Below, piece by piece: positions 3 to 21,857 of a stretch of 64,000 bases of DNA. Below the pieces are notes generated by a model. The model was given only the letters and a program-made list of their open reading frames with translations. It was not told where the DNA came from and did not search any database. The position numbers and the translations under genes were made by a program. The stretch is from positions 53,659-117,658 of the forward strand of contig URAF01000005.1 of assembly GCA_900545885.1 (NCBI GenBank), in the 5' to 3' direction. Position 1 is the stretch's first letter. Each line of letters opens with the position of its first letter. The DNA comes from an uncultured Eubacteriales bacterium (GTDB lineage: Bacteria > Bacillota > Clostridia > Christensenellales > CAG-917).

Positions 3-449
3 GTGGCAATAGATACCGATATGTCGGGCGAGGACGTTTTTGCAAGATACAACGCCTCCGTCCCCGAAGATATGCGCGCCACGGAATGGTTTTCAATGGC
101 GAAAAATCCGAACTTAGCGGGCAGAATAACCGCGGCGGATTATATTTTCCCCGTTGAAGGCGGTTTGGAACTCGGCGACGAGTTCGTCGTAGAATACAAT
201 AAAAAAGGCGAAGACGTAAAAGAAAACGTGCGTTCGAGAATATATGCAACGGGCGTATCGGCGGAAGGGAAACTCACAATGAAACTTGCCGCGGGCAACA
301 CGACTCTTCGTGCCGACAGAGTTTTTGCCGCGCTTAAAGACCGTACGGAAGACGAGGCGGGACTTCCCGACACCCTCAAAACCGCACAATACGTTACGGA
401 AAACGGCGAATTCGTAAACGTGGACGAATGGCTCAAATCAATGGTTTAA
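3..449 (+). CDS. hypothetical protein, C-terminal part (frame open to the left window edge)
   Basis: The frame-3 reading frame is open from the first bases to TAA 447-449. Composition is coding-like. No family recognised. Confidence 0.5.
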   Translation: MAIDTDMSGEDVFARYNASVPEDMRATEWFSMAKNPNLAGRITAADYIFPVEGGLELGDEFVVEYNKKGEDVKENVRSRIYATGVSAEGKLTMKLAAGNTTLRADRVFAALKDRTEDEAGLPDTLKTAQYVTENGEFVNVDEWLKSMV

Positions 450-7240: not shown

Positions 7241-7459
7241 GTATAATCGAAAGAATAGTAAGCGTGCATATTGCGTGCGTTGTGTGTGACGCGTATGCGT
7301 ATCTGCGCCTGCGTCGTGTGTGGTAGTGCCTGCATCTTCAATGTTCGTTTGACATAGTCGTACGGATTTTGCGGAAACTGTATGTGCCTTGCCGTTCGGT
7401 TCAACAGTAATTACAATTTGCGGATGCCGCTCAATGCGGATACCGCTTCGGAGGTAATA

Positions 7460-9229
7460 ATGAAATTTGACAACAAAGGAGTCCAGAAGTTCGTGGACGA
7501 CAGCGTCGCGCTTTGCACCCCCGATAAGGTCGTTCTTATCGACGGTTCCGAAGAACAGCTCGAGTCTCTCAGAAAAGAGGCTATGGCCACCGGCGAAATG
7601 ATTCAGCTCAATCAGGAATTGCTCCCCGGTTGCTATCTCCATCGTACCGCAGTCAACGACGTCGCACGTGTGGAAGGCCGTACTTTCATCTGCACCGAAA
7701 AAGAAGAAAACGCAGGTCCCACCAACAACTGGATGCAGAAAGACAAAGCCTACGAATTGCTCAAAGGTATCTATAAGGGTGCCATGAAAGGAAGAACAAT
7801 GTACATCATTCCTTTCTCCATGGGCGCTATCGGTTCTCCTTTCTCCAAAATCGGTATCGAACTCACCGACAGTATCTACGTTGTTCTCAACATGGCAATC
7901 ATGACCCGCGTCGGCAGCAAGGTTCTCGAAACCCTCGGTGACAGCGACGATTTCGTCCGCGGTCTCCATGCAAAAGCCGACCTCGACGAAGAAAAGAGAT
8001 ATATCTGCCAGTTCCCCGAAGACAACACCATTATGTCCGTCAATTCCGGTTACGGCGGAAACGTTCTTCTCGGCAAAAAGTGCTTCGCGCTCCGTATCGC
8101 TTCCTATCAGGGACGCAACGAAGGCTGGCTTGCGGAACATATGCTCATTCTCGGTCTCGAAAAGCCCAACGGCGAAACCAAATATATCGCGGCGGCATTC
8201 CCTTCCGCTTGCGGCAAGACCAACCTCGCAATGCTCATTCCTCCCAAGGAATTTGCGGATAAGGGTTACAAAATCCATACCGTCGGCGACGACATCGCAT
8301 GGATCAGAGTAGGCAAGGACGGCAGACTTTACGCCATCAACCCCGAAAACGGTTTCTTCGGCGTTGCTCCCGGCACCAATGCAAAGTCCAACCCCAACGC
8401 GCTCGCAACCACCAGAAAGGGCACCATTTTCACCAATGTTGTTCACAATCTCGAAAACAACACCGTGTGGTGGGAAGGTCTCGATAAGAATCCTCCCAAG
8501 AACGCAATCGACTGGAAGGGCAATCCCTGGACGGAAGAAGACAGAGCAAACGGCGTGAAGGGCGCACACCCCAACTCCCGTTTCACCGCTCCCGCAAAGA
8601 ACTGCCCCTGCATTTCCGACGAGTTCGAAAATCCCCAGGGCGTCCCGCTCGATGCAATCATCTTCGGTGGCCGTCGTGCCAAGACCGCGCCCCTCGTTTA
8701 TGAAGCGAGAGATTGGGCAAACGGCGTGTTTGTAGGTTCCATCATGGCATCCGAAACCACTGCCGCGGCAAGCGGAGCAGTCGGTGTTGTCCGTCGTGAT
8801 CCTATGGCAATGTTGCCTTTCTGCGGATATCACATGGGTGATTACTTCCAGCATTGGCTCGATATGGGCGAAAAAGTTGCAAAGAAGCCTAAGTTCTTCA
8901 ACGTCAACTGGTTCCGTACCGACGAAAACGGCAACTTCCTGTGGCCCGGTTTCGGCGACAATATGCGCGTACTCGACTGGATTATCCGTCGTACCGAAGG
9001 TACCGTCGACGCAGTCGAAACTCCTATCGGATACGTTCCTCGTCCCGAAGACATTAACCTCAACGGCACCGACCTCACCACCGAAGACGTGGCAAATCTC
9101 CTTTCCGTTGACAAGGAACTTTGGAAAGAGGATGCCGAGGGTATTGAAACCTTCTATGCGAAGTTCGGCGACAAACTTCCCGCACAGCTGCGCAAAGAGC
9201 TCGATACTTTGAAGGAGAACCTCAAATAA
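7460..9229 (+). CDS. pck: phosphoenolpyruvate carboxykinase (GTP)
   Basis: 589 aa from ATG 7460, with SD GGAGG at 7450-7454. It carries the GTP-PEPCK P-loop FPSACGKTNLAML and conserved blocks GDDIAWI, NPENGFFGVAPGT, PNSRFT. The first 26 codons of the track ORF are UTR. Confidence 0.95.
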   Translation: MKFDNKGVQKFVDDSVALCTPDKVVLIDGSEEQLESLRKEAMATGEMIQLNQELLPGCYLHRTAVNDVARVEGRTFICTEKEENAGPTNNWMQKDKAYELLKGIYKGAMKGRTMYIIPFSMGAIGSPFSKIGIELTDSIYVVLNMAIMTRVGSKVLETLGDSDDFVRGLHAKADLDEEKRYICQFPEDNTIMSVNSGYGGNVLLGKKCFALRIASYQGRNEGWLAEHMLILGLEKPNGETKYIAAAFPSACGKTNLAMLIPPKEFADKGYKIHTVGDDIAWIRVGKDGRLYAINPENGFFGVAPGTNAKSNPNALATTRKGTIFTNVVHNLENNTVWWEGLDKNPPKNAIDWKGNPWTEEDRANGVKGAHPNSRFTAPAKNCPCISDEFENPQGVPLDAIIFGGRRAKTAPLVYEARDWANGVFVGSIMASETTAAASGAVGVVRRDPMAMLPFCGYHMGDYFQHWLDMGEKVAKKPKFFNVNWFRTDENGNFLWPGFGDNMRVLDWIIRRTEGTVDAVETPIGYVPRPEDINLNGTDLTTEDVANLLSVDKELWKEDAEGIETFYAKFGDKLPAQLRKELDTLKENLK

Positions 9230-10976: not shown

Positions 10977-10980
10977 AAAT

Positions 10981-11011
10981 AAGCGGCAAGAAATTGCCGC
11001 TTTATTTTTTT
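10981..11011 (+). terminator. intrinsic terminator
   Basis: Stem AAGCGGCAA / TTGCCGCTT, followed by TATTTTTTT. Confidence 0.85.
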
Positions 11012-11012
11012 C

Positions 11013-11071
11013 TGCATTGGGGACGGAGCAAAAGTGCAAAAATTATGCAAAATAGCTCCGTCCCCAATGCA
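11013..11071. repeat. left 59-bp hairpin repeat (17-bp stem, 25-nt loop)
   Basis: TGCATTGGGGACGGAGC (11013-11029) pairs perfectly with GCTCCGTCCCCAATGCA (11055-11071). Confidence 0.9.
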
Positions 11072-11079
11072 TAAAAATG

Positions 11080-11108
11080 TTGACTTGGAGAGGAAAAGAA
11101 AATATAAT
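11080..11108 (+). promoter_or_regulatory. sigma-70-type promoter of the transposase gene
   Basis: TTGACT (11080-11085), 17 nt spacer, TATAAT (11103-11108). Confidence 0.7.
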
Positions 11109-11126
11109 GTAGTAAAGAGGTGGATT

Positions 11127-11888
11127 ATGTCGAGAATTGCAAGAAAAGATTGTCAGAGCAGTTGTTTTCACATCATTGTTCAAGGTTTGGACAAGGAAAA
11201 TATTTTCAGTAGCGGCAGGATGAAAAGAGAGTACCTTGCCGATATCGAAAAGTTCAAAGACGAGCACGGTGTGAAGGTTCTGGGGTACTGCGTGATGAAC
11301 AATCATTGCCATCTTGTTCTGTTTTGCGAAAATATTGAAGAACTCGGAAATTTCATGAGAAGGGTGAACGGAAGATTTGCCCAGTTTTATAATTATACCA
11401 ATAACAGAACAGGGTATGTCTTCAGAGACCGTTTCAGAAGTCAGGCAATTACCAACGACGAATATATGACAAATTGCTTGGTTTATGTGCACAATAATCC
11501 TGTTAAAGCTGCGATTGTGTCAGATTGTGAAGATTATGCGTATTCAAGTATGCGCTGTTACACCGAAAGACACGGGCTTGTTGATTTCGATGCCGCGGCT
11601 AAGTTTTTTGATGTAGATGCAGAAAACGTAAGGGCGATTATGGAAGAAAAGTCTGCGGCTTGCGATATAGATTGTCCCGAGTGGGCGGACATCAAGGAAG
11701 AAACGGACAGACAAGAAATGATTGAAAAAGTCCTTAGACGGAACGGATACAATGCGGCGTTTTTCAAGAAGGATACGGAGCGTTTTGCGAAATTGGTGAG
11801 GGAGCTGAAAGAGTGTGGAATGTCGCAGACGGAAATTGCTGCGGCGCTGAACGTCGGAAGGGGAAGAGTGCAGTACGCGTTGAAATGA
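11127..11888 (+). CDS. HUH (Y1) tyrosine transposase, RAYT/IS200 superfamily, with C-terminal HTH tail
   Basis: 253 aa from ATG 11127, with SD AAAGAGGTGG. The HUH motif is HCH in VMNNHCHLVLF. The catalytic-Tyr block is LVYVHNNPVKAAIV. The C-terminal HTH-like segment is MSQTEIAAALNVGRGRVQYAL. Confidence 0.8.
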   Translation: MSRIARKDCQSSCFHIIVQGLDKENIFSSGRMKREYLADIEKFKDEHGVKVLGYCVMNNHCHLVLFCENIEELGNFMRRVNGRFAQFYNYTNNRTGYVFRDRFRSQAITNDEYMTNCLVYVHNNPVKAAIVSDCEDYAYSSMRCYTERHGLVDFDAAAKFFDVDAENVRAIMEEKSAACDIDCPEWADIKEETDRQEMIEKVLRRNGYNAAFFKKDTERFAKLVRELKECGMSQTEIAAALNVGRGRVQYALK

Positions 11889-11893
11889 TTTTA

Positions 11894-11952
11894 TGCAATG
11901 GGGACGGAGCAAAAGTGCAGAAATAATGCAAATTTGCTCCGTCCCTAATGCA
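11894..11952. repeat. right 59-bp hairpin repeat
   Basis: TGCAATGGGGACGGAGC (11894-11910) / GCTCCGTCCCTAATGCA (11936-11952). There are 6 differences to the left copy, 2 of them in the stem. Confidence 0.9.
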
Positions 11953-12131
11953 GGAAAATGGGAAGATTAAAGAGAACTTAACTGTAATTAACACTTTACG
12001 AATAGAAAAAAAGCAATGATAATATAAATATGCATATAGTTTTGCTCGCATAGCGTACGCGCGTGTAAGCGTAAAGGGGCGTGCGCGAGAGCGCGGGCAA
12101 ATGGGAAGAAAGGCTATCAAGAGGTGGGATT

Positions 12132-15100
12132 ATGAGAAACAACCGAAACAGCTCGAGAAACTTCTTTGTCAACTTTGTGCGCTTCGGCATGCTGGCGATG
12201 TGTTTCGCCCTTGTGTTTGCGCTGGTTCTGAGCGGCGGTATTTTTGATTTGGGTTCGTCTTCCGACGGCATAGCTTTAGCTGTCGATAACGGCGGAAAAA
12301 CATTGGCGGTGCCTTCACCTGCTAATGCTGATGCCAATTATTTTGGCATGACCGATCATACAAAAAGTTCATGGACGGGAACCGTTAATTTCAACCAAAC
12401 TAAATTTGACGCAAGCAATGTCAGTGGACATGTTCATGGCGAAACCGGTGTAACCTCAACAGTTCGAAGTTATGGAACGGGAAGTGTCGAGTTGGGAAGT
12501 TCTGACTATATTACTGTTGCACCCTATGTTAATGCAGGCGCAATCAATGTTGATTTGTCAGGGTTTGTCGGCACCATGTTGCAAAATTCAAACATTGAGG
12601 TCGATGTTACTGTAAATGCGGAAGTTTATAAGGGATATGTTGGCAACTGGTCTGGACTTGGTGCATATGCAACAAATGAAGTTTATGACGCAGAAACCAT
12701 GTGGGGAAAAACCGCAAGCAACAATGTAGTTATTGGTTATGAAACTTGTGTTGGTGGTGGCGGAGACGAAAAATGGACGGCAAGAACGGCAACAACAACT
12801 TTGAAAGGAGATTATAAAAATCTGCTTATTGTTTTTGCAATGCGTGGCACAAGTTCTATGTGGTTCTCGTATCGTGCAGAAACTGGTATTAGAAATATTT
12901 CGGTTACTTATACTGTCCGCGTTGTTGGTATTTCTGAAAATGCAAATACGACAATTTCTGACGGTGCTGCTCCTCGAATTGAGTCTTTCGGAGAGACAGT
13001 GCCTTACCGTACATCCGCGGACGCAAGCGATTGGACGGTTAAGCCTAATACGGGAAACAGTGAAATTGACTCGGCAATCAGAAAGCAACTCGAAGGTGCT
13101 GTCGATACAGAACTCGATGTTGATGTGCTTGCCACAGGCGGTACTGTTAATCTTAAATCCTATACCAGTCAAAAATTGACGGTATCGGGTATTCCCGGTG
13201 ACATTTACAAAAAAACCACGTTGAATTTCAACGATTATATGAATTATTTCAATTTGGGTGAAGTGTCTTCCGATGTCAATCCAAATCTTGCTGCAGGTAT
13301 TAAGCAGATAGATATCGGCGAAACCGTAATTAACCTTTATGAAAGTACATTAGAAAAACAGATTGTTGTAGATGAAGAAGTCGTAGGTTATGCGAAGATA
13401 GTAAAAACTTCTCGTTCAAAGGTTCAGTTGCAGATGTATTTCTACAAAAATGCAACATTCAATGTCAGACTTGTGGACTACGGCGGATCTTCGATGACGT
13501 TGAAGTACACTGTTTCTGGCATAGATACTGCAGCTCCAGACAGTTCTGCTATCGACTTTTTGCTTTCGGCGGATAATTTCGTCGGAAAGCTGGCGGCGGA
13601 AGGAAATAATTTCTCACTTACAAACTGGTTTACAAACAGCAGATTGGCAGAAGTCATGGAGGGTATTAAAACCAGTGAAGACGAAGTTATCGATGCGTCC
13701 GGCGCAACTCCTTACCTTTGGTATTACGATGTCAAATACTCCCAAAATTTGACTTCTGATTTCTTTACACTGACACCTCCCGACGGTTTTGAATACACGT
13801 CGGCTTATTTTGCAAGCAAGGTGCCAGCTGCTGTATATTCTATCGGCGATTTCAGTTATGACTTTGCTAACGGCGGAATTTACAGAACCGGAGTTCAGCC
13901 TATAAGCGGCAATGCTCCCAAGGGTGCAGGTTACTACATATTCACTTTTTATATGATGGATTTCTCCGGAAACGTTTATCAGGGGAATGCTTCTTACTAT
14001 GTGAAGGTTGATAACGTTGCGCCTGAAAACACCGTTACCGTAAATGCGGGTGACATTCAAATTGTTCCTTCTTCTCCTGCAGAGGGTCAGCTTGCCAACG
14101 GAAGTTGGGTAAACCAGAACATTACTGCGACGGTTGCCTGGAATATGAACATTTCCGGCAATAAGATTTCGTTTGAATACAACGGCGACACTTACGTCGT
14201 GTATTTCCGCGCAGACGGTGATACTTATAAAGTCGCAAAAATAACCAAAAACAATTCCGACGTGTCGGATTGGGACAGCGGTAACTCTTACACCGTTAAA
14301 GACGGTGAAACCGAACTGTTCACCTTCAATTTCTCCGAAAGCGGCGGAAAAGGTACGTTTGCCATAACGTTCACGGGCTATGACGCCGCAGAAAAAGCAT
14401 ACTTGCTCGATACAACCGTTTTGTTTACGGTTCTTAACGACGGCGACAACGACGACGGCGAAACCGGTCTTTCCAGATTCGATTCGAGTTGGACTTTCGG
14501 CGGTGTTGGCAACATCGCAATCCGCATTGACAAGGTTGCTCCCGCGAATCCCGTTCTCACCACGGACAATTCCGACGAAATGACGGATAACAAGTTCGTG
14601 AATATTGATTCCAACGGAAATCTTTATGTGCCTGAAAACAGAAACTGGTTCAACTCCGCTTGGGACGTTTACGCGTTTCTGCGACTTGCGGGCGATGTTG
14701 ACGTAACAGCGAACGAATTTGCAACTCTGCAACTTTGGGTAAAAAATTATACCGACATTGCGGAACTCGAAAAAGTTAATTTGAGAGTTTTGTTTGAAAC
14801 GGAAATGCTCAACGCAGAAGGTAAATCATGGGATTATTCCAAGACGTATGGTGTTGAAGATATTCTCGACAACAACGTTTATATCGATTTCAAAGAAACG
14901 GCAGGTGAAACCGCGGGTCTGCGCGTCGTGTTCGTACAGCTTACGGACGCCGCAGGCAACAAGAGTGCGGTGCAGGCGTTTGTCATTCTGGTTGACGCAA
15001 ATGTCTACACGCTCAATGCCGAAGTTGCCGAGGAATATTTCGATTTAATCGACGGTATCGGTAACGTAAACTTCAGATACACCAACACCAGCGGCAACAC

Positions 15101-18100
15101 ACAGACCGAATTCAGACGCGGCGAATGGTCTCGTCTCGAAATTACGGGACTTGACGCCAAGTACGTTCCTTATCAGATTTACAAGGACAATTTCAACGAA
15201 CCGCAATCGTTGATGTACAGTAACGAAACCACGACGAAAGAGTTCTTTACCGAAGCAATTCGCGAAGGCTTGCTTAATTATGTCAGAGTAAACGGACAAA
15301 ATGCGAACATTATCGAAATGGCGATTGACCGCAGCGACTCTATTGCGGCGTTGCCTTTCGGTGAGGGTTATGCAAAACTCTGGATTTCCTTCCGCGAAGT
15401 AGTCACGTACGAGCCCACAAGCACCAACGTTGAGTATACGGGCAAAGAAACTGTGGTTCCGTTCACTGTATCTAACGAAAAGGCACGCGATTTGGTGAAA
15501 ATCGTTTGGGAAAACGAAAGTGTGCCTGTGACGGTCGGCACGTACGGTTTGTATCTCGAACTCGATACAACGCACGAGCTGTCCAAGTTCTACGTGGGCG
15601 ATAGAACAGATATAATAGCTTATAATATTATACCTGGTAACATTATTATTACCGCGCACGGAACGTCCGTGTACGGGTCGAAAATAAATATAACCGTGGA
15701 TATAGACAAACCCGAGGGCGTGGAACTGACTTCGGGCATGTTCGGCGTCGACAGCGTCGAGGCATTCCCGTTTGTCGGCAACTACAATCTCAAAAAAGTC
15801 GAGGATTACGAGTTTGTCAATCCGGATGACGCGAAAAACTATAAAATCACTTATATTCTCGGTGTATATACCGTAACTCCCAGAAATCTCGAAATTACCT
15901 TCCTCGGCGCGACAAAAGCGTACGGTAATGTTGACCCGAAGATTTCGTTCAGTTTTGCAAAAGGAGATTATCAGGGCTCGTTTGCCGGAATATTCTCCGG
16001 CGAGGGGGTTACATACAAAGAGGACGGAGACAGACTGATTGTCACCGTTCCCGCTTCCGCTGTAACGCGCGAAAGAGACTTCAACGAGTTCGGTTACGAA
16101 AACGCGGGCAAATACGCATATAAGGGTATTTCTACTTCCGCCATCGGTCTCAACAAGAACTTCACGATGTCTATGGCTCTTTCGGGACACGGCGTGTTCG
16201 AAATTACAAAACGTCCGATTACCGTAACTCCCGTTGTTGACCAGGTTCTTTATTCGCTCGACGCGAAAGTGGCATACAAACTCGCCGAACAGGACGCGGC
16301 ATTTGCGCCTCAACTTGCGGGATTGTTCCTTGCGGTAGGCGATAAAGTAGGTTCGGAAGGCAACACTTATCAGATTGCTCTCGGCGACCTTTCTGTGCTT
16401 GATAACTTTGTAGTCAGCGTTGCCACAGGTTATACGGTAACGGTTGTTCTCGACGACGGCGGCAACGTCATCAATCTTACCTTCAAGGATAAAGAACTGT
16501 TGCAAATCCTCTTCGGCGACGTGTTCGATATCAGCGTGCTTACTAATCTTAACAACTACGATCCCAAAGGTGTCGGCGTTGACTTTACGCTCAAACTCGG
16601 TGCGGAAGTGGTCGGATACGATTTCGGCGCGGACAAGTTTACGAACGGTGCAGGCGCGTATGCAATCAGAGTGTACGTCGAGAGCTACAAGGACAAGACA
16701 GGCGCAGACGTCAAAGACAAATATAATTTCGTGTTCAAGGATTGCGAATATTTGTTTGTCAATCCCGCAACCGTAACCGTCACGCCCGTACTTGAAAACA
16801 ACAAGAAGATTTACGGCGACATCGACAACTGGAACTTTGCGTTCACGTTCTCCGGTGCGCTCGTCGATGCGGGTTATATGCCCGAATCCAACCAGGTCGG
16901 CGGCAAAATCGTGCGTGCCCTGTATCGTGCAGACGGAACGTTCGTGCAGATTGGCGGACAGTTTGACCGCGCAAACGATCTGGACGGCAACATTACCGCA
17001 CAGGGTCACTACTACGGCGCGTACGTGCTCGAAACCCTGTATTCTTCCGACCCCAACATCGTGCTCGAACTTGACAAAGAAGCGTTTGACGCGTTGCGTT
17101 TCACCGTTTCGCCCAGACCTATCAATGTGAACGATGCAGTGTTTACGGGTAAGGACAAGAACAACGACGGAACGAGCTATGTTGTCTATAAAGGCGAGAA
17201 CGAAAAACGTACCGCAATCAACATCGGCAGGCTTATCGCAAGAATTACCGACGACGTCTGGGTCGATTTCGTTGCAAACTACGTTGACGGAAACGGCGCT
17301 GAACAGGCGGGTCAGGGTAGCTGGAACATCAACTTCCACGATTTCGTCCTCAAAGGCGACGACGCGCGCAACTATATTCTTACGGGAGACGCAAACGTTG
17401 TTCTTACGGGCGCGTTCAAGATCAACGGCACCACGGTTGCCGAAATTACAATCACCAAGAACGATTTCAGCGTGAACAAGGTTTACGACGGTACGTCTTC
17501 CATGACTATCGACGATATCGACATCGCGCTCAGTTCTCCTCTTTGCGGTCTCAACGTGGTCTTCTCCAAGGGTAGCTTCGGCACCAAGGACGCAGGCGTT
17601 GACATCTCGGTCGGTTCTATTACGCTCATCGTAAAAGGCGTTGTCGGCATCAAGACGCAGGATACCGACATCTCAATCACCGACGACGGCAAAGACAGCA
17701 CAATTACAATCAACAACGTATTTGCGGCAATTCAACCCCGTACGATTGACCTCGACGAAGTCATTCTGCAAATTCCGTCCGAACGCAACTACAACGGCAC
17801 TAACGAAGTCGCGATAGGTTATATGCTTTCGGGCAACGTCTTGCAGACGGGCGACAGCATCGAAACTCTCGGAGCGAAGTTCCCCGCTACCGTTCCTTCC
17901 AAGGACGTTCAGGGCGACAAAGAAAACCCCAAAGCACAGGATATTACGTTCGGTGAACCTACTTTGGCGACGGGCAACTACGCGTTCGGTTTCACCGCTG
18001 ACGACATCAATGCGGCGTATGCGGACGTAACTCTTACCATTATCCCCGCAGACATCTCGCTTGACATCATCGCGGCAGGCAAAACCTATTTCGGAAGTGC

Positions 18101-21100
18101 GGGACTTGTTTACGGCGCGGATATCACCGTCAATGGCATTAAGGTCAACTCCGAACCTATCGTAGGTTGGGGCGATACCGATAACGTTACCGTAAACGGT
18201 CAGGACAGCGCGACTTACACCCTGTGGAACCAGAGTACGGACAAAGAAGATTTCTACGTACAACTCGGTGCGGACGGCAACGTCAGACTCCACGACCTCA
18301 AAGTTACGGGACTTGACATCGAAATCACTGGTAATCCCGTCAACTATAACCTTACGATAAACGACAGCAACGAGTACGTATTCGGTGAGATATTCCCGCT
18401 CAATCCCGTCAAGGTCAGCATCACGCTCAACGATCTCTCCGTAAAAGACAAGGTTTATGACGGTACTATCGATGCGGAACTCAACGATGTCGACCTCGGA
18501 AATTACGGCGTGACCTTCAACCAGGACAAAGATTATCTGTCCCTCGGTTATAAGGCACAGTTCAACACCAACAATCCCAACGTTCAGAAAGGTGTGGACG
18601 TCAAAATCAGTTCCGTTAAACTCGTAAGTGAGAACGCGGGATTGCTCGCAAGCTACTATATCGACATCGCAAGCCTTACCTGTACGCTCAAAGCGGCAGG
18701 CAACATCGTTGCGGCTCCTCTTGCAGTCGACTTCGACCTCTCCAAGACTTACGACGGAAACGTGTTCGAAAACGTGTCCGTGAAGTATACGCTCAGCGGA
18801 TATGCACAGACTGCCGACCAGAGCGGATATTCCGTCAACTTCGTCACGGGTGCCTTCGATGACCCCAATGTCGCGAAGGACATCAACGGAGATTTGACCA
18901 CCGTAAGCGGCAAGGTGTTCGGTTTCGAACTCGTCAGAAACAACGGCGTAAACAACTACAGACTGGTCTTTGCGTCTACAACCGATAATCTCCAAGGCTA
19001 TATCAAAGTTGCGGAAACGGGCAGTCTGCCTGCGACCGACGATCAGAGTAGACCGCTTTACTACTATGAGTTCAACGCAGCAACCGATCGTATAGTCATA
19101 AAAGAAGCAGATTGGAACGCGTTCACTGACGAAGAGAAAAAGACTGAGGAAGGCAAAGCAGTCAACATCGTTGCGGCATATGTTGAAGGTGACGTTAAAT
19201 ATTATGTGCTCGACGGTACGCCCACAGGCGGAATGACGTCCACCAAGTCCCTGAACGAAAGCGGCGCGGACGGCATAATCGAACCCGCACTCATCTCTTA
19301 CACCGTAAACGTCAATCCCGCAACGGCGGAAAGAGACCCCTTCAAGAAGGTCTTTGACGACAGCAATGCGACAATCAAAGCAGATGCGGAAGGCGGCAAC
19401 GGCTGGTATTACGGCGGTCGCGGTGCGGAAGGCAACGACTTCGAATTCGTGCTCGGCGGCGAATACGGCTTCGAAATCAAAGATTTCTCCGTATACTATG
19501 AATCTTCTGCAGTCGGCAACGGCGTGAACGTGGTGTTCAGAATAGATTCGTTTGAGATAATCGGTGGAGGTTCTATCGAAATCGGCGAATCCAACAACTT
19601 CACGTTGCTCGGTGGTGAAGGCTACAAGAAAGCGGTCGGTACAATTACGGCAAAATCCGTTGACGTGGCGTTCGGAAATGTCAAGGAAGACGGCAAAGTC
19701 CACTTCACATACGGCGACACTCACGAATATACTTACACCTATACCACCGGTGGTAAGGAAATCAAACTTGCAAAAGACGCCGACGGTAAGACTTACGGGT
19801 ATGTTGCGGTAGCCGATTACACGGCGGCAGGTTTTGCGGCAACCGATTACACGGGCAGACGCTACAACATCAACGAAGAAACGGGTGCATTTGAACTCAA
19901 CGAAGAAGGCGCATACATCCGCATAGCCGGTACGTTCGGCGATATTGCTCCTGCAAACGAAGCATCCATCGTCAACGCAGGCGAATATGAAGTCAACAAT
20001 GTAAGCGGCAAAGCAGACAACTTCACCTACGCGTTTGTGGCGGGTACGGTGGTAGTTGACAAAGCGGCGCTCACTGTCGGTGTAAGCAACGAGAAACTTC
20101 AAAAGGAATTTGCCTCTTCCGTCTATCCCGACCTTGCATTCGTAATTTCTACGGGTGAAATCAAAGCCCCCGATACGGAAGCTCAAATTCTCGCAGAGTT
20201 GAAGAAAGGCGCCAAGTACTTTATCTTTACGGCGGAAGGCGTCAAGGGCGGTGCGGTCGTTGACAGGTCTATGATAAGTGCAGACCTCGAAGGCGGTGCG
20301 TATTACGCACTCGACGTAGAAGGTGCGCTTCAAAACTACGACGTCAAACTTGACAAGACTTATACGCTCGACATCGTTCTTCCCGAACTCACGGGACTCT
20401 CGACTGCCTCCGGTGTGTTCGAAAAGACTTACGACGGCATAGCGGTTGACGACGCGAATGCGTTTGCTGCGAAGTACATCAAGGGAACGCAGTCCGGTGA
20501 TACGTTCTCGCTTGCATGGGCTGGCGGCACGGTCGCGAAGAATGCGGGAGATTACAACTGGACTATCACCGTAACCCGCAGCCTCGGCAAAGATGCAACC
20601 GATGCGAAAGAGTACACCATAAGCGCAACGATAAGCGGCGAATATGCAGTTCTGAAACGCAACGCAACTCTTACTACAAACGAGAAGTATGACTTCACTT
20701 ACGACAAGACGGACAAGAAACTCGACGAAAGCCAGTTCGTAGTGTTTGGAGCCGTTAATGGTGAAGATGTTGCGTCGGCAATCAAGGTTTCCTACAAATA
20801 CGGCGACGTCGTAACCGACGTGATGCGCGACGCAAAGACTTACGGTGTGATTGCGGAAATAACCGACGCCACCATGGCAGGCAACTACAACCTCATCAAC
20901 GGTATCGGCAACGTAACCGTCAAGAAAGCAAACATCACGGTTGCAGTCAATCCCGAATCCAAGTATCAGTATGTAACGGGCGGCACTACAATTAACCCCG
21001 CACATATCGATTTCACGGTTCCCGAAGGATTTGACAAAGCCGACTTCACCGTCAAGTACACAGCATCTTCTACGGGCACGGTGTCTTCCGTCAACGAACC

Positions 21101-21857
21101 CGGTGTGTACAGCTACACCATCACTTACGTTGACGCAAACTACAATATCGTCGGCGGCATCGGCACTCTGACGGTTGCGATGAACGAAATCGCGTTCGTC
21201 AAGGACGATACGGTTTACGCAAGCATCAAGTTTACCGACGCGGTCACCGTTCCTTATAAACTGAACTACACCGAAATCACCGAAGACGGCAGCCTCAACA
21301 GCCAGACTTACTGGAACTTCGTCAACGATTATGTCGTTGCAAACCTCGGTGACAAGAAGAACGAAGCCACTACCGAAGGCGTTGTCGCGGTGTCGCTGTC
21401 CAACGGTTCGACGGAAATTCGTCGTCTTGACCAGCAAATGACGGTAAGCGTGAGCATGCCCGCAAACGTTGCTTCCATGGACGGCTACAAGGCATACTAT
21501 GTCAACTCCGACGGTCAGCTGGTGGAAATTTCGGACTACGAAGTTGCAAACGGCTACTTCACTTACACGACGGATTACATCGGCGACCTCGTGTTCGTCA
21601 AGTTCGCGGCAATCGCGCTACCTATGTGGATCTGGATACTTGTCGGCATTCTCGCACTGCTCATTATCATCGCGATTATCCTTGCGATAGTGATCAGCCA
21701 GAAACGCAAAAAGATGCCCATGTACGTTGAAGCTCCCGCGGCGGCAGACGCTTCCGAAGCGGCGGCGGACGTCGAAATCATCGAGTACTATGACCCCGAC
21801 AGACCCGAAGTCGTGAACAAGAACAAGAAACCGCCTATCATCGGTATCAGAAAGTAA
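12132..21857 (+). CDS. giant surface protein with MBG (YGX-type) and YDG repeats; N-terminal signal/anchor and C-terminal TM anchor
   Basis: 3241 aa from ATG 12132, with SD AAGAGGTGGG. N-terminal hydrophobic segment FGMLAMCFALVFALVLSGG. It has more than 15 repeats of the type TVTPRNLEITFLGATKAYGNVDP / VKDKVYDGTIDA / LSKTYDGNVFE. The C-terminal TM is LPMWIWILVGILALLIIIAIILAIVI, followed by a basic/acidic tail. There is no LPXTG. Confidence 0.85.
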   Translation: MRNNRNSSRNFFVNFVRFGMLAMCFALVFALVLSGGIFDLGSSSDGIALAVDNGGKTLAVPSPANADANYFGMTDHTKSSWTGTVNFNQTKFDASNVSGHVHGETGVTSTVRSYGTGSVELGSSDYITVAPYVNAGAINVDLSGFVGTMLQNSNIEVDVTVNAEVYKGYVGNWSGLGAYATNEVYDAETMWGKTASNNVVIGYETCVGGGGDEKWTARTATTTLKGDYKNLLIVFAMRGTSSMWFSYRAETGIRNISVTYTVRVVGISENANTTISDGAAPRIESFGETVPYRTSADASDWTVKPNTGNSEIDSAIRKQLEGAVDTELDVDVLATGGTVNLKSYTSQKLTVSGIPGDIYKKTTLNFNDYMNYFNLGEVSSDVNPNLAAGIKQIDIGETVINLYESTLEKQIVVDEEVVGYAKIVKTSRSKVQLQMYFYKNATFNVRLVDYGGSSMTLKYTVSGIDTAAPDSSAIDFLLSADNFVGKLAAEGNNFSLTNWFTNSRLAEVMEGIKTSEDEVIDASGATPYLWYYDVKYSQNLTSDFFTLTPPDGFEYTSAYFASKVPAAVYSIGDFSYDFANGGIYRTGVQPISGNAPKGAGYYIFTFYMMDFSGNVYQGNASYYVKVDNVAPENTVTVNAGDIQIVPSSPAEGQLANGSWVNQNITATVAWNMNISGNKISFEYNGDTYVVYFRADGDTYKVAKITKNNSDVSDWDSGNSYTVKDGETELFTFNFSESGGKGTFAITFTGYDAAEKAYLLDTTVLFTVLNDGDNDDGETGLSRFDSSWTFGGVGNIAIRIDKVAPANPVLTTDNSDEMTDNKFVNIDSNGNLYVPENRNWFNSAWDVYAFLRLAGDVDVTANEFATLQLWVKNYTDIAELEKVNLRVLFETEMLNAEGKSWDYSKTYGVEDILDNNVYIDFKETAGETAGLRVVFVQLTDAAGNKSAVQAFVILVDANVYTLNAEVAEEYFDLIDGIGNVNFRYTNTSGNTQTEFRRGEWSRLEITGLDAKYVPYQIYKDNFNEPQSLMYSNETTTKEFFTEAIREGLLNYVRVNGQNANIIEMAIDRSDSIAALPFGEGYAKLWISFREVVTYEPTSTNVEYTGKETVVPFTVSNEKARDLVKIVWENESVPVTVGTYGLYLELDTTHELSKFYVGDRTDIIAYNIIPGNIIITAHGTSVYGSKINITVDIDKPEGVELTSGMFGVDSVEAFPFVGNYNLKKVEDYEFVNPDDAKNYKITYILGVYTVTPRNLEITFLGATKAYGNVDPKISFSFAKGDYQGSFAGIFSGEGVTYKEDGDRLIVTVPASAVTRERDFNEFGYENAGKYAYKGISTSAIGLNKNFTMSMALSGHGVFEITKRPITVTPVVDQVLYSLDAKVAYKLAEQDAAFAPQLAGLFLAVGDKVGSEGNTYQIALGDLSVLDNFVVSVATGYTVTVVLDDGGNVINLTFKDKELLQILFGDVFDISVLTNLNNYDPKGVGVDFTLKLGAEVVGYDFGADKFTNGAGAYAIRVYVESYKDKTGADVKDKYNFVFKDCEYLFVNPATVTVTPVLENNKKIYGDIDNWNFAFTFSGALVDAGYMPESNQVGGKIVRALYRADGTFVQIGGQFDRANDLDGNITAQGHYYGAYVLETLYSSDPNIVLELDKEAFDALRFTVSPRPINVNDAVFTGKDKNNDGTSYVVYKGENEKRTAINIGRLIARITDDVWVDFVANYVDGNGAEQAGQGSWNINFHDFVLKGDDARNYILTGDANVVLTGAFKINGTTVAEITITKNDFSVNKVYDGTSSMTIDDIDIALSSPLCGLNVVFSKGSFGTKDAGVDISVGSITLIVKGVVGIKTQDTDISITDDGKDSTITINNVFAAIQPRTIDLDEVILQIPSERNYNGTNEVAIGYMLSGNVLQTGDSIETLGAKFPATVPSKDVQGDKENPKAQDITFGEPTLATGNYAFGFTADDINAAYADVTLTIIPADISLDIIAAGKTYFGSAGLVYGADITVNGIKVNSEPIVGWGDTDNVTVNGQDSATYTLWNQSTDKEDFYVQLGADGNVRLHDLKVTGLDIEITGNPVNYNLTINDSNEYVFGEIFPLNPVKVSITLNDLSVKDKVYDGTIDAELNDVDLGNYGVTFNQDKDYLSLGYKAQFNTNNPNVQKGVDVKISSVKLVSENAGLLASYYIDIASLTCTLKAAGNIVAAPLAVDFDLSKTYDGNVFENVSVKYTLSGYAQTADQSGYSVNFVTGAFDDPNVAKDINGDLTTVSGKVFGFELVRNNGVNNYRLVFASTTDNLQGYIKVAETGSLPATDDQSRPLYYYEFNAATDRIVIKEADWNAFTDEEKKTEEGKAVNIVAAYVEGDVKYYVLDGTPTGGMTSTKSLNESGADGIIEPALISYTVNVNPATAERDPFKKVFDDSNATIKADAEGGNGWYYGGRGAEGNDFEFVLGGEYGFEIKDFSVYYESSAVGNGVNVVFRIDSFEIIGGGSIEIGESNNFTLLGGEGYKKAVGTITAKSVDVAFGNVKEDGKVHFTYGDTHEYTYTYTTGGKEIKLAKDADGKTYGYVAVADYTAAGFAATDYTGRRYNINEETGAFELNEEGAYIRIAGTFGDIAPANEASIVNAGEYEVNNVSGKADNFTYAFVAGTVVVDKAALTVGVSNEKLQKEFASSVYPDLAFVISTGEIKAPDTEAQILAELKKGAKYFIFTAEGVKGGAVVDRSMISADLEGGAYYALDVEGALQNYDVKLDKTYTLDIVLPELTGLSTASGVFEKTYDGIAVDDANAFAAKYIKGTQSGDTFSLAWAGGTVAKNAGDYNWTITVTRSLGKDATDAKEYTISATISGEYAVLKRNATLTTNEKYDFTYDKTDKKLDESQFVVFGAVNGEDVASAIKVSYKYGDVVTDVMRDAKTYGVIAEITDATMAGNYNLINGIGNVTVKKANITVAVNPESKYQYVTGGTTINPAHIDFTVPEGFDKADFTVKYTASSTGTVSSVNEPGVYSYTITYVDANYNIVGGIGTLTVAMNEIAFVKDDTVYASIKFTDAVTVPYKLNYTEITEDGSLNSQTYWNFVNDYVVANLGDKKNEATTEGVVAVSLSNGSTEIRRLDQQMTVSVSMPANVASMDGYKAYYVNSDGQLVEISDYEVANGYFTYTTDYIGDLVFVKFAAIALPMWIWILVGILALLIIIAIILAIVISQKRKKMPMYVEAPAAADASEAAADVEIIEYYDPDRPEVVNKNKKPPIIGIRK

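Follow-up and report, generated by a model that had tools for sequence, protein, structure and literature searches.

A gene of the Y1 transposase family that lies between two nearly identical hairpin-forming repeats raises the question of whether it is a mobile insertion sequence (IS) or a resident enzyme accompanied by repeats of its own. We asked this question for a unit of 0.94 kb on contig URAF01000005.1 of an uncultured Eubacteriales bacterium, within a stretch of 64,000 nucleotides that was analysed as a whole (the window). The unit comprises a gene for a 253-aa protein enclosed by two 59-bp palindromes (Table 1). A preliminary description had called it a RAYT/IS200-superfamily HUH transposase bracketed by twin hairpin repeats and had left a single IS and dispersal in the manner of repetitive extragenic palindromic (REP) elements as alternatives; the evidence favours the REP/RAYT-like alternative with a vertically inherited gene. 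With a probability of roughly 0.8, the locus is in our reading a RAYT-type 'REPtron/TIRtron', i.e. a single-copy gene, fixed in the chromosome, for a Y1 HUH nuclease/transposase that acts on single-stranded DNA and has a DNA-binding domain at its C-terminus, together with copies of the enzyme's recognition repeat on either side.

In agreement with the original call, the gene encodes a Y1/HUH enzyme that belongs to the RAYT branch. It matched the Pfam profile PF01797 (Y1_Tnp) over residues 14-124 with 34.8 bits against a cutoff of 23; the 29 aligned homologs all matched this profile as well. An AlphaFold2 model based on 29 homologs (mean pLDDT 86) has a beta-alpha core at residues 13-147 and, beyond a linker of low confidence (187-193), a bundle of helices at the C-terminus (195-252). 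Foldseek searches with this model ranked E. coli TnpAREP (4ER8) at the top (E=1.6e-6, TM 0.70 on target), followed by the TnpA proteins of ISDra2 and IS608 (2xma, 2a6m, 2vjv), and 4ER8 was also the sole match of the PDB sequence search. H60, H62 and Y120 are unchanged in the 29 homologs despite 50-70% overall divergence, N124 and P125 are likewise invariant, and Y137-S-S140 is conserved in the family alignment. As judged from the sequence, the catalytic residues are intact, and the enzyme and a well-defined hairpin repeat are genetically coupled. The open reading frame (ORF) with its HCH motif, tyrosine block, promoter and strong Shine-Dalgarno sequence was found as originally described. Of the extra C-terminal helix-turn-helix (HTH) that had also been proposed, the helical region is present in the model, while matches to HTH_23, HTH_28 and Sigma70_r4 remained at E ~0.005, below the cutoffs, and were scattered among the family members; from these matches and the modelled helices we regard the HTH as putative.

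The two palindromes are present as first reported, with the same orientation, 17-nt arms and a 25-nt loop. They agree at 53 of 59 positions in direct register (88% across a 72-nt extension) and at just 47 of 59 when one is reverse-complemented; for the loops alone the values are 21/25 direct versus 15/25 inverted. The arms of the left copy (TGCATTGGGGACGGAGC) are perfectly complementary, those of the right copy at 15 of 17 positions. Folded as single-stranded DNA they reach -26.9 and -24.7 kcal/mol (z ~ -9.5, with 0/200 shuffles as good), and they are the longest and strongest short-range inverted repeats of the window. The 17-mer arm occurs four times in the window, each time within one of the two palindromes, where 0.08 occurrences are expected. 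A lone GGGGACGG at window position 58-65 (minus strand) has no flanking stem, and since the count of this octamer is at chance expectation it was discounted. Rfam searches returned no match that reached its gathering score. The best was a sub-threshold match of window 10978-11102, covering the terminator of the upstream AMP-binding gene and the left palindrome, to the Streptococcus sRNA SSRC34 (RF02526, 39 bits versus a gathering score of 64, E=0.001), which is probably a generic structure match; the others were generic hairpins.

The internal structure of the palindromes became apparent from the comparison with homologous loci, 85 of which were retrieved via the protein. Motifs of the GGGGACGG type adjoin the gene at ~55 of these 85 loci, typically on the plus strand 40-230 nt upstream and on the minus strand 16-400 nt downstream. 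The single repeat is a small hairpin of the form x-GGGGACGG(nnn+A/T)-x' (e.g. GTTGTCAA...TTGACAAC in locus L186), in which a stem of 6-10 bp that varies by lineage encloses a loop of 13-15 nt holding the conserved octamer GGGGACGG. Perfect stems of 6 bp or more surround the octamer in 57% of the units; in the two controls the share was 10% when flanks were swapped and 6% when positions were drawn at random. The stem stops 0-1 nt before the octamer and restarts 5-6 nt after it, and 94 distinct stems were counted in 139 units. The 26-nt units of the window (TGCATTGGGGACGGAGCAAAAGTGCA) have the stem TGCATT / AAGTGCA with gaps of 0 nt before and 5 nt after the 8-mer and one T.G wobble, which is the most frequent geometry in the family. 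Because they fit this geometry, each 59-bp palindrome is a REPIN-like pair of two units placed head to head, which can form either a single long hairpin or two small hairpins. Locus L173 carries an exact GGGGACAG, and in an Armatimonadota genome (L097) an identical GGGGACGGAGC palindrome lies beside a classic protein of TnpAY1 subclass 2.1 (NHVH/WQ/YVERNP). Taken over homolog neighbourhoods and palindromes, the core was found in many phyla. At four further loci (L136, positions 43-190 and 944-1020; L147, 2339-2395; L134; L140) 3-4 tandem units stand upstream of the gene and an equal number, inverted, downstream. Full-length homologs with 29-33% identity were also seen on contigs classed as viral (L206-L208 from IMG/VR, phage record MT835484.1), and in L206-L208 a GGGGACGTACC unit is located ~120 nt upstream of the homolog.

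The repeat is not confined to the neighbourhood of Y1 genes. A scan for palindromes of the form GGGGACGGAGC-N15-35-GCTCCGTCCC in one genome per species returned at least 120 stretches, with copies per genome being lower bounds. The matches listed came, often several per genome, from Clostridia, Burkholderiales, other Proteobacteria, metagenome-assembled genomes labelled 'Bacteroidaceae', Omnitrophota, Syntrophia, WS1, Armatimonadota, Bacillales and others. In 85 of the 112 matches listed the stem was longer by at least 4 bp than the specified bases, which identifies them as genuine palindromes; ~11 of the 112, including those of Streptomyces and Methanomicrobiales, lacked a stem extension and may have arisen by chance in G+C-rich DNA, hence we make no claim for archaea. 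Since tblastn and the hidden Markov model of the family detected a Y1 homolog beside the palindrome in only 2 of the 120 scan loci listed, most of these palindromes are solo copies, which we interpret as solo dispersal and not as a missing association. Solo palindromes were depleted within long ORFs, with 47% of them inside compared to 88% of random positions under a crude ORF definition. Specifically, solo palindromes of the L050 stem type occur on other contigs of the genome of L050, a relative of the window's species (L099, L103), the Armatimonadota genome of L097 has a solo copy (L053), and a further clostridial genome (L010, Ca. Limadaptatus) contains a palindrome of the type seen in another relative (L131) without the gene. 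In the complete 2.63-Mb replicon of the cultured Acetoanaerobium noterae a full-length homolog (NHVH / FQ / YIHNNP) is encoded once, and the 54-nt repeat region upstream of it recurs at 33 places in this replicon and essentially nowhere in the other 7.3 Gb searched. A different architecture with the same 11-nt core was observed in the complete genome of Petroclostridium sp. X23 (L101, L106, L108, L120), where four near-identical core-bearing repeats with a non-palindromic inner part are spread across 4 Mb.

Related genomes made it possible to follow the unit at its chromosomal site. Gene and hairpins occupy one syntenic site in six related gut Clostridia (L126, L128-L131, L050), in which the neighbouring genes for phosphoenolpyruvate carboxykinase (PEPCK) and the AMP-binding protein are 76-92% and 81-100% identical to those of the window, a giant gene follows downstream, and the DNA stays colinear across the AMP-binding gene and on into the Y1 gene. 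The Y1 proteins of relatives at this site are just 44-53% identical to that of the window, and the topology of their identity matrix is the same as that of the neighbours, namely ((L128, L130, L131), window), L050. Nonsynonymous divergence (dN) amounts to 0.22-0.50 for the Y1 gene compared to 0.04-0.16 for the AMP-binding gene, with ratios to synonymous divergence (dN/dS) of ~0.16-0.4. The Y1 gene has diverged ~4-8 times faster than its neighbours, congruently with them and with invariant catalytic residues. The five lineages at the site carry five unrelated stems (TGCATT, AAACAATT, TTCCATTT, CGGACTCCT and TTTCCTCTT) around the same core in the same geometry, and all four arms of a locus share one variant; in L128-L130 this sharing extends to core position 9, where A is replaced by G. 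Because all four arms of a locus change together, the stem replacement at this site is concerted evolution. In L050 the Y1 gene has been inverted with respect to the genes around it. In L128, L130, L131 and L050 one palindrome mirrors the other; only the window's species has both in direct orientation, a species-specific flip.

In three more distant relatives (L213, L214, L216), with AMP-binding proteins 69-76% identical to that of the window, the giant gene follows directly after the AMP-binding gene; neither a Y1 gene nor a GGGGACGG hairpin was found at these sites, and the terminator is retained. From these empty sites it follows that the unit is a discrete block, gained (or lost) in one piece and passed on at a fixed position since then. 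The earlier view that the hairpin bracket is not accidental is borne out by the hairpins being conserved with the gene across relatives and phyla and missing where the gene is missing. Hairpins retained without the ORF, as ORF-independent terminators of the neighbouring genes, had been considered as well; this idea was rejected in view of the empty sites without hairpins and of the separate terminator of the upstream gene, which also shows that the left hairpin is not the terminator of the AMP-binding gene.

Table 1. Features of the Y1 unit and its immediate surroundings, in positions of the window (a dot marks features without a strand)
Feature	Position	Strand	Remarks
Intrinsic terminator of the upstream AMP-binding gene	10981-11002	+	just ahead of the left hairpin; context
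Left 59-bp palindrome	11013-11071	.	head-to-head dimer of two hairpin units with a 7-nt spacer between them
Unit L1	11013-11038	+	TGCATT-GGGGACGGAGC-AAAAGTGCA
Conserved core GGGGACGGAGC	11019-11029	+	family-wide invariant part is GGGGACGG
Unit L2	11046-11071	-	second half of the left palindrome
Further core copy	11055-11065	-	
Sigma-70-type promoter TTGACT-17-TATAAT	11080-11108	+	11/12 match
Shine-Dalgarno sequence GAGGTGG	11117-11123	+	3 nt ahead of the ATG; read off the sequence
Y1/HUH tyrosine nuclease gene, RAYT-like, 253 aa	11127-11888	+	nearest described group TnpAY1 subclass 2.1 / TIRYT
HUH motif H60-C61-H62 (NHCH)	11304-11312	+	aligned to HMH of TnpAREP
Catalytic tyrosine motif Y120-V-H-N-N-P125 (within YVHNNPVKAAIV)	11484-11501	+	class-2 'Y...NP' signature; aligned to YIYINP of TnpAREP
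C-terminal helical domain, putative HTH, residues ~195-253	11709-11885	+	modelled helices 195-206, 217-229, 234-241, 245-252
Right 59-bp palindrome	11894-11952	.	units R1 and R2; two arm positions degenerate
Unit R1	11894-11919	+	
Further core copy	11900-11910	+	
Unit R2	11927-11952	-	
Further core copy	11936-11946	-	1 mismatch

Several other explanations have to be weighed against a resident RAYT-type nuclease. An autonomous, currently mobile IS of the IS200/IS605 type, with the hairpins as its ends and the whole 0.94-kb unit transposing, would agree with the presence of a discrete block relative to the empty sites, with a Y1 transposase-family gene between hairpin ends and with the inverted gene of L050; owing to the palindromic flanks, both ends even have one GGGGACGG unit on a common strand, which is what IS200/IS605 chemistry would require. 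Such an element is, however, difficult to reconcile with the occurrence of the unit at the same site in six related lineages with congruent phylogeny, with the one common context of 10 of 10 contigs encoding the exact protein, and with the lack of near-identical second copies. In addition, the signature is 'Y...NP' and not the 'Y...Q' of IS200, no tnpB accompanies the gene, the family is rare on plasmids and phages, and in Acetoanaerobium the repeats are multi-copy whereas the gene is single-copy. We consider a mobile IS very improbable, and the locus is a vertically inherited RAYT-like nuclease with cognate repeats and not an active IS. That the palindromes are chance or replication-slippage products unrelated to the gene can practically be dismissed: apart from the general capacity of AT-rich intergenic DNA to hold inverted repeats nothing speaks for it, the comparison with shuffled sequences and the number of arm matches in the window already refute it, and the same core lies beside homologs in dozens of loci of several phyla.

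A further possibility is that the hairpins are mainly regulatory or structural elements of DNA or RNA (HTH operators, insulators or terminators between the AMP-binding, Y1 and giant genes), with the Y1 protein domesticated as a non-cutting DNA-binding regulator. The spacing of the parts would suit such a role, as the distance from the end of the left palindrome to the -35 hexamer of the Y1 gene is 9 nt, a TTGAC(A/G) -35 has the same position relative to the hairpin in L128, L130, L131 and L097, and the right palindrome begins 6 nt past the stop codon; the HTH-like C-terminal domain and the fixed, vertically inherited gene would fit as well. Yet a regulator that does not cut leaves the invariance of H60, H62 and Y120 across so divergent homologs unexplained, neither palindrome is followed by a T-run or was called as a terminator, and a purely local role does not explain solo hairpins far from any Y1 gene. 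We therefore regard it as unlikely as the main function, and a regulatory role is compatible with the RAYT reading as a secondary one.

Some observations also weigh against the RAYT-type reading itself. Synonymous divergence of the Y1 gene lies above that of the adjacent AMP-binding gene, and because of this excess allelic replacement by recombination among relatives may have contributed in place of simple fast vertical evolution. The protein scored 77.7 bits against NCBIfam NF047646 (REP_Tyr_transpos, the REP-associated tyrosine transposase equivalog), slightly under the cutoff of 80. A solo hairpin copy was sought across the 64-kb window and none was found, and as this window was the search space, dispersal of the hairpin in the source organism itself is unproven. 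The motifs NHCH, FR and YVHNNP of the window protein are near but not equal to those published for subclass 2.1, which are NHVH/NH[YF]H (NH[VYF]H), W[EQ]/FQ and YIELNP/Y[IV]HLNP (Quentin et al. 2018, PMC6006769); motifs of the published kind do occur in relatives with the same repeat, in the Armatimonadota protein as well as in that of Acetoanaerobium. The octamer departs at position 7 (G) from the GGGGWSAS consensus of the described TIRtron repeats. Quentin et al. found no REP-like structures around subclass 2.1 genes, and in the literature on subclass 2.1, TIRYT and group 1 no cleavage chemistry is reported for any member.

By analogy with E. coli TnpAREP and IS608 TnpA, the RAYT-like enzyme would bind the hairpin once the DNA is single-stranded, for instance on the template of the lagging strand, cleave it via Y120 with an HUH-bound metal and then rejoin the ends. 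Cutting and rejoining of this kind could copy or homogenise hairpin units throughout the genome and at the enzyme's own flanks. Binding to the left palindrome would probably also autoregulate the gene, as is suggested by the close and conserved spacing between hairpin and -35 hexamer. More speculatively, the cut may lie inside the loop, because the anatomy of variable stem and conserved loop resembles the origins of rolling-circle Rep proteins.

For the window itself these results describe ordinary biology and no new kind of system, since the class has already been described. Their broader meaning lies in the group 1 / subclass 2.1 proteins being the most widely distributed class-2 Y1 nucleases, of which none has been characterised biochemically and for which the main survey reported no hairpins. 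The small-hairpin anatomy and the solo populations extend the picture of subclass 2.1 given by Quentin et al., and the locus and its relatives define a compact candidate substrate, a small hairpin with GGGGACGG in a loop of 13-15 nt. We tentatively propose, as a possibility to which we give distinctly less weight than to the reading of the locus itself, that the GGGGACGG-loop hairpin is the cognate and possibly nick-bearing site of this largest and least studied RAYT group, with a core kept near-constant in seven or more bacterial phyla and freely changing stems, and that the dispersed palindromes are REPIN-like populations maintained by the enzyme in gut Clostridia and many other lineages. 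If true, the published view of subclass 2.1 as lacking REP-like partners would no longer hold, and biochemical work on the group could begin with one simple substrate. Presence and absence, inversion, palindrome flip and concerted stem turnover form a natural series at one site, and together with a cultured organism that has one gene and ~33 repeats this series makes the effect of the enzyme on its repeats directly testable. In the annotation of such units, the label 'IS200 transposase' should give way to that of a domesticated nuclease of the RAYT/TIRYT type with cognate repeats.

The surroundings of the unit showed additional features. As had been noted initially, the unit is located between the terminator of the AMP-binding gene and the promoter region of the giant surface-protein gene (12132-21857, 3241 aa). 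In other relatives the slot between this terminator and the giant-gene promoter holds other cargo, a 120-aa PF05635 (23S_rRNA_IVP / Avd-like) gene among 'agttatattg' repeats in L212 (6909-7271) and long inverted repeats in L211 (6645-7100), and it looks like an insertion hotspot. Directly to the right of the right palindrome (window 11953-11975) a motif (a)atgg(g/a)aagattaaa is present in all unit-bearing loci (L128, L130, L131), which may be part of the unit end or of the insertion site. An alternating purine/pyrimidine tract (e.g. gcatagcgtacgcgcgtgtaagcg) at window ~12040-12110, upstream of the giant gene, is kept in all relatives, whether or not they carry the Y1 unit (L212, L213, L214, L128); it had no match in Rfam and could be a leader or regulatory element. 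The strain of L126 has Y1 and AMP-binding genes 99-100% identical to those of the window, while the N-terminal part of its giant gene cannot be aligned to window 12260-13913 (39% amino acid identity) and ~90% nucleotide identity resumes from 13913, which suggests a strain-variable, cassette-like region. The hairpin as a recombination junction for this variable gene was considered and rejected, as the similarity between window and L126 passes the right hairpin up to 12260 and breaks inside the gene. The PEPCK gene of L126 (window 7382-9229) is only 85% identical although the adjacent AMP-binding gene is 99.8% identical, which implies a recombination breakpoint between the two genes.

How the locus relates to known systems can be seen by comparing it to four of them. 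The TnpA proteins of IS608 and ISDra2 (IS200/IS605, subclass 1.1) share with the window protein the HUH/Y1 fold and presumably the recognition of hairpins in single-stranded DNA. In these elements two unlike subterminal hairpins on one strand form the ends, and cleavage takes place outside them, which is not the case in the window. Class 2 proteins are moreover distinguished by a Y...NP motif from the Y...Q of IS200 (Quentin et al. 2018), and IS200/IS605 elements have a core of ~150 aa, multiple identical copies and often tnpB, whereas the window has YVHNNP, 253 aa with an extra domain, one context and the same palindrome at both ends.

The best PDB match by structure and sequence was TnpAREP (RayT/YafM) of the E. 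coli REPtron, a member of subclass 2.2. It is likewise a single-copy, vertically inherited Y1 nuclease between cognate hairpins that are also dispersed in the genome, and its inverted REP pairs (REPINs/BIMEs) resemble the palindromes of the window. TnpAREP has 165 aa and no HTH tail, and is only ~16% identical to the window protein. In the REPs of E. coli a G+C-rich stem with a bulge has a conserved GT[AG]G at its 5' foot; this foot is missing from the window hairpins, which carry GGGGACGGAGC and in which the loop is conserved and the stem variable. In the REPIN-RAYT systems of Pseudomonas (Bertels & Rainey 2011; groups 2 and 3) a doublet of inverted units also forms a long hairpin, the RAYT gene, which is inherited vertically, lies between the REPINs that it presumably mobilises, and the repeat sequence undergoes concerted evolution. 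They belong to another RAYT group with another motif, and number hundreds of REPINs per genome, compared to no solo copy in the 64-kb window and ~33 in the Acetoanaerobium replicon. The initial separation of the locus from classical IS200/IS605 elements agrees with both ends being the same palindrome. The distinctiveness claimed for the locus had been overstated, because each palindrome is an inverted pair of units and thus has the inverted layout embedded, and because the orthologous palindromes of L128, L130, L131 and L050 are mirror images. The CGTC-tagged REPs of Di Nocera were considered since the core contains GACG, and were rejected: these have 8-9 bp stems, 4-5 nt loops and a terminal CGTC, occur mostly in alpha-proteobacteria and have no associated transposase. 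A literature search with the core sequence returned nothing but unrelated eukaryotic primer matches.

The arrangement belongs to a described class that the preliminary description did not name, TIRYT/TIRtron, subclass 2.1 or group 1 RAYT. TnpAY1 subclass 2.1, with a median length of 238 aa, a C-terminal HTH_23/HTH_28/DnaA_C (Bac_DnaA_C) domain and a proximal 'SS' motif, has been equated with TIRYT (Quentin et al. 2018, PMC6006769), a term confined to this paper and that of Di Nocera et al. (2013, PMC3733652). The latter described TIRtrons as TIRYT genes flanked by inverted repeats sharing GGGGWSAS, some of them self-complementary and forming moderately abundant dispersed families. Group 1 RAYTs are the most widely distributed group, include Clostridia and have flanking 16-mers in ~12 copies (Bertels et al. 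2017, PMC5581495). The texts of these three studies do not describe the anatomy of variable stem and conserved loop, and each flank in the window differs from TIRtrons in being a complete head-to-head dimer. Shared with the class are the Y1/HUH protein of ~240-250 aa with a putative HTH_23/HTH_28-like tail and a 'YSS' proximal motif, the low-copy gene between inverted repeats with a GGGG-led octamer, some of them self-complementary and, in relatives, moderately abundant elsewhere in the genome, and the wide, patchy taxonomic range that includes Clostridia; most homolog loci, furthermore, have the plus-upstream and minus-downstream layout of TIRtrons. The locus is therefore neither an IS200/IS605 element nor a canonical GTAG-REP REPtron, and it fits the TIRYT/2.1 class in its architecture and, with GGGGACGG, at 7 of 8 positions of the octamer.

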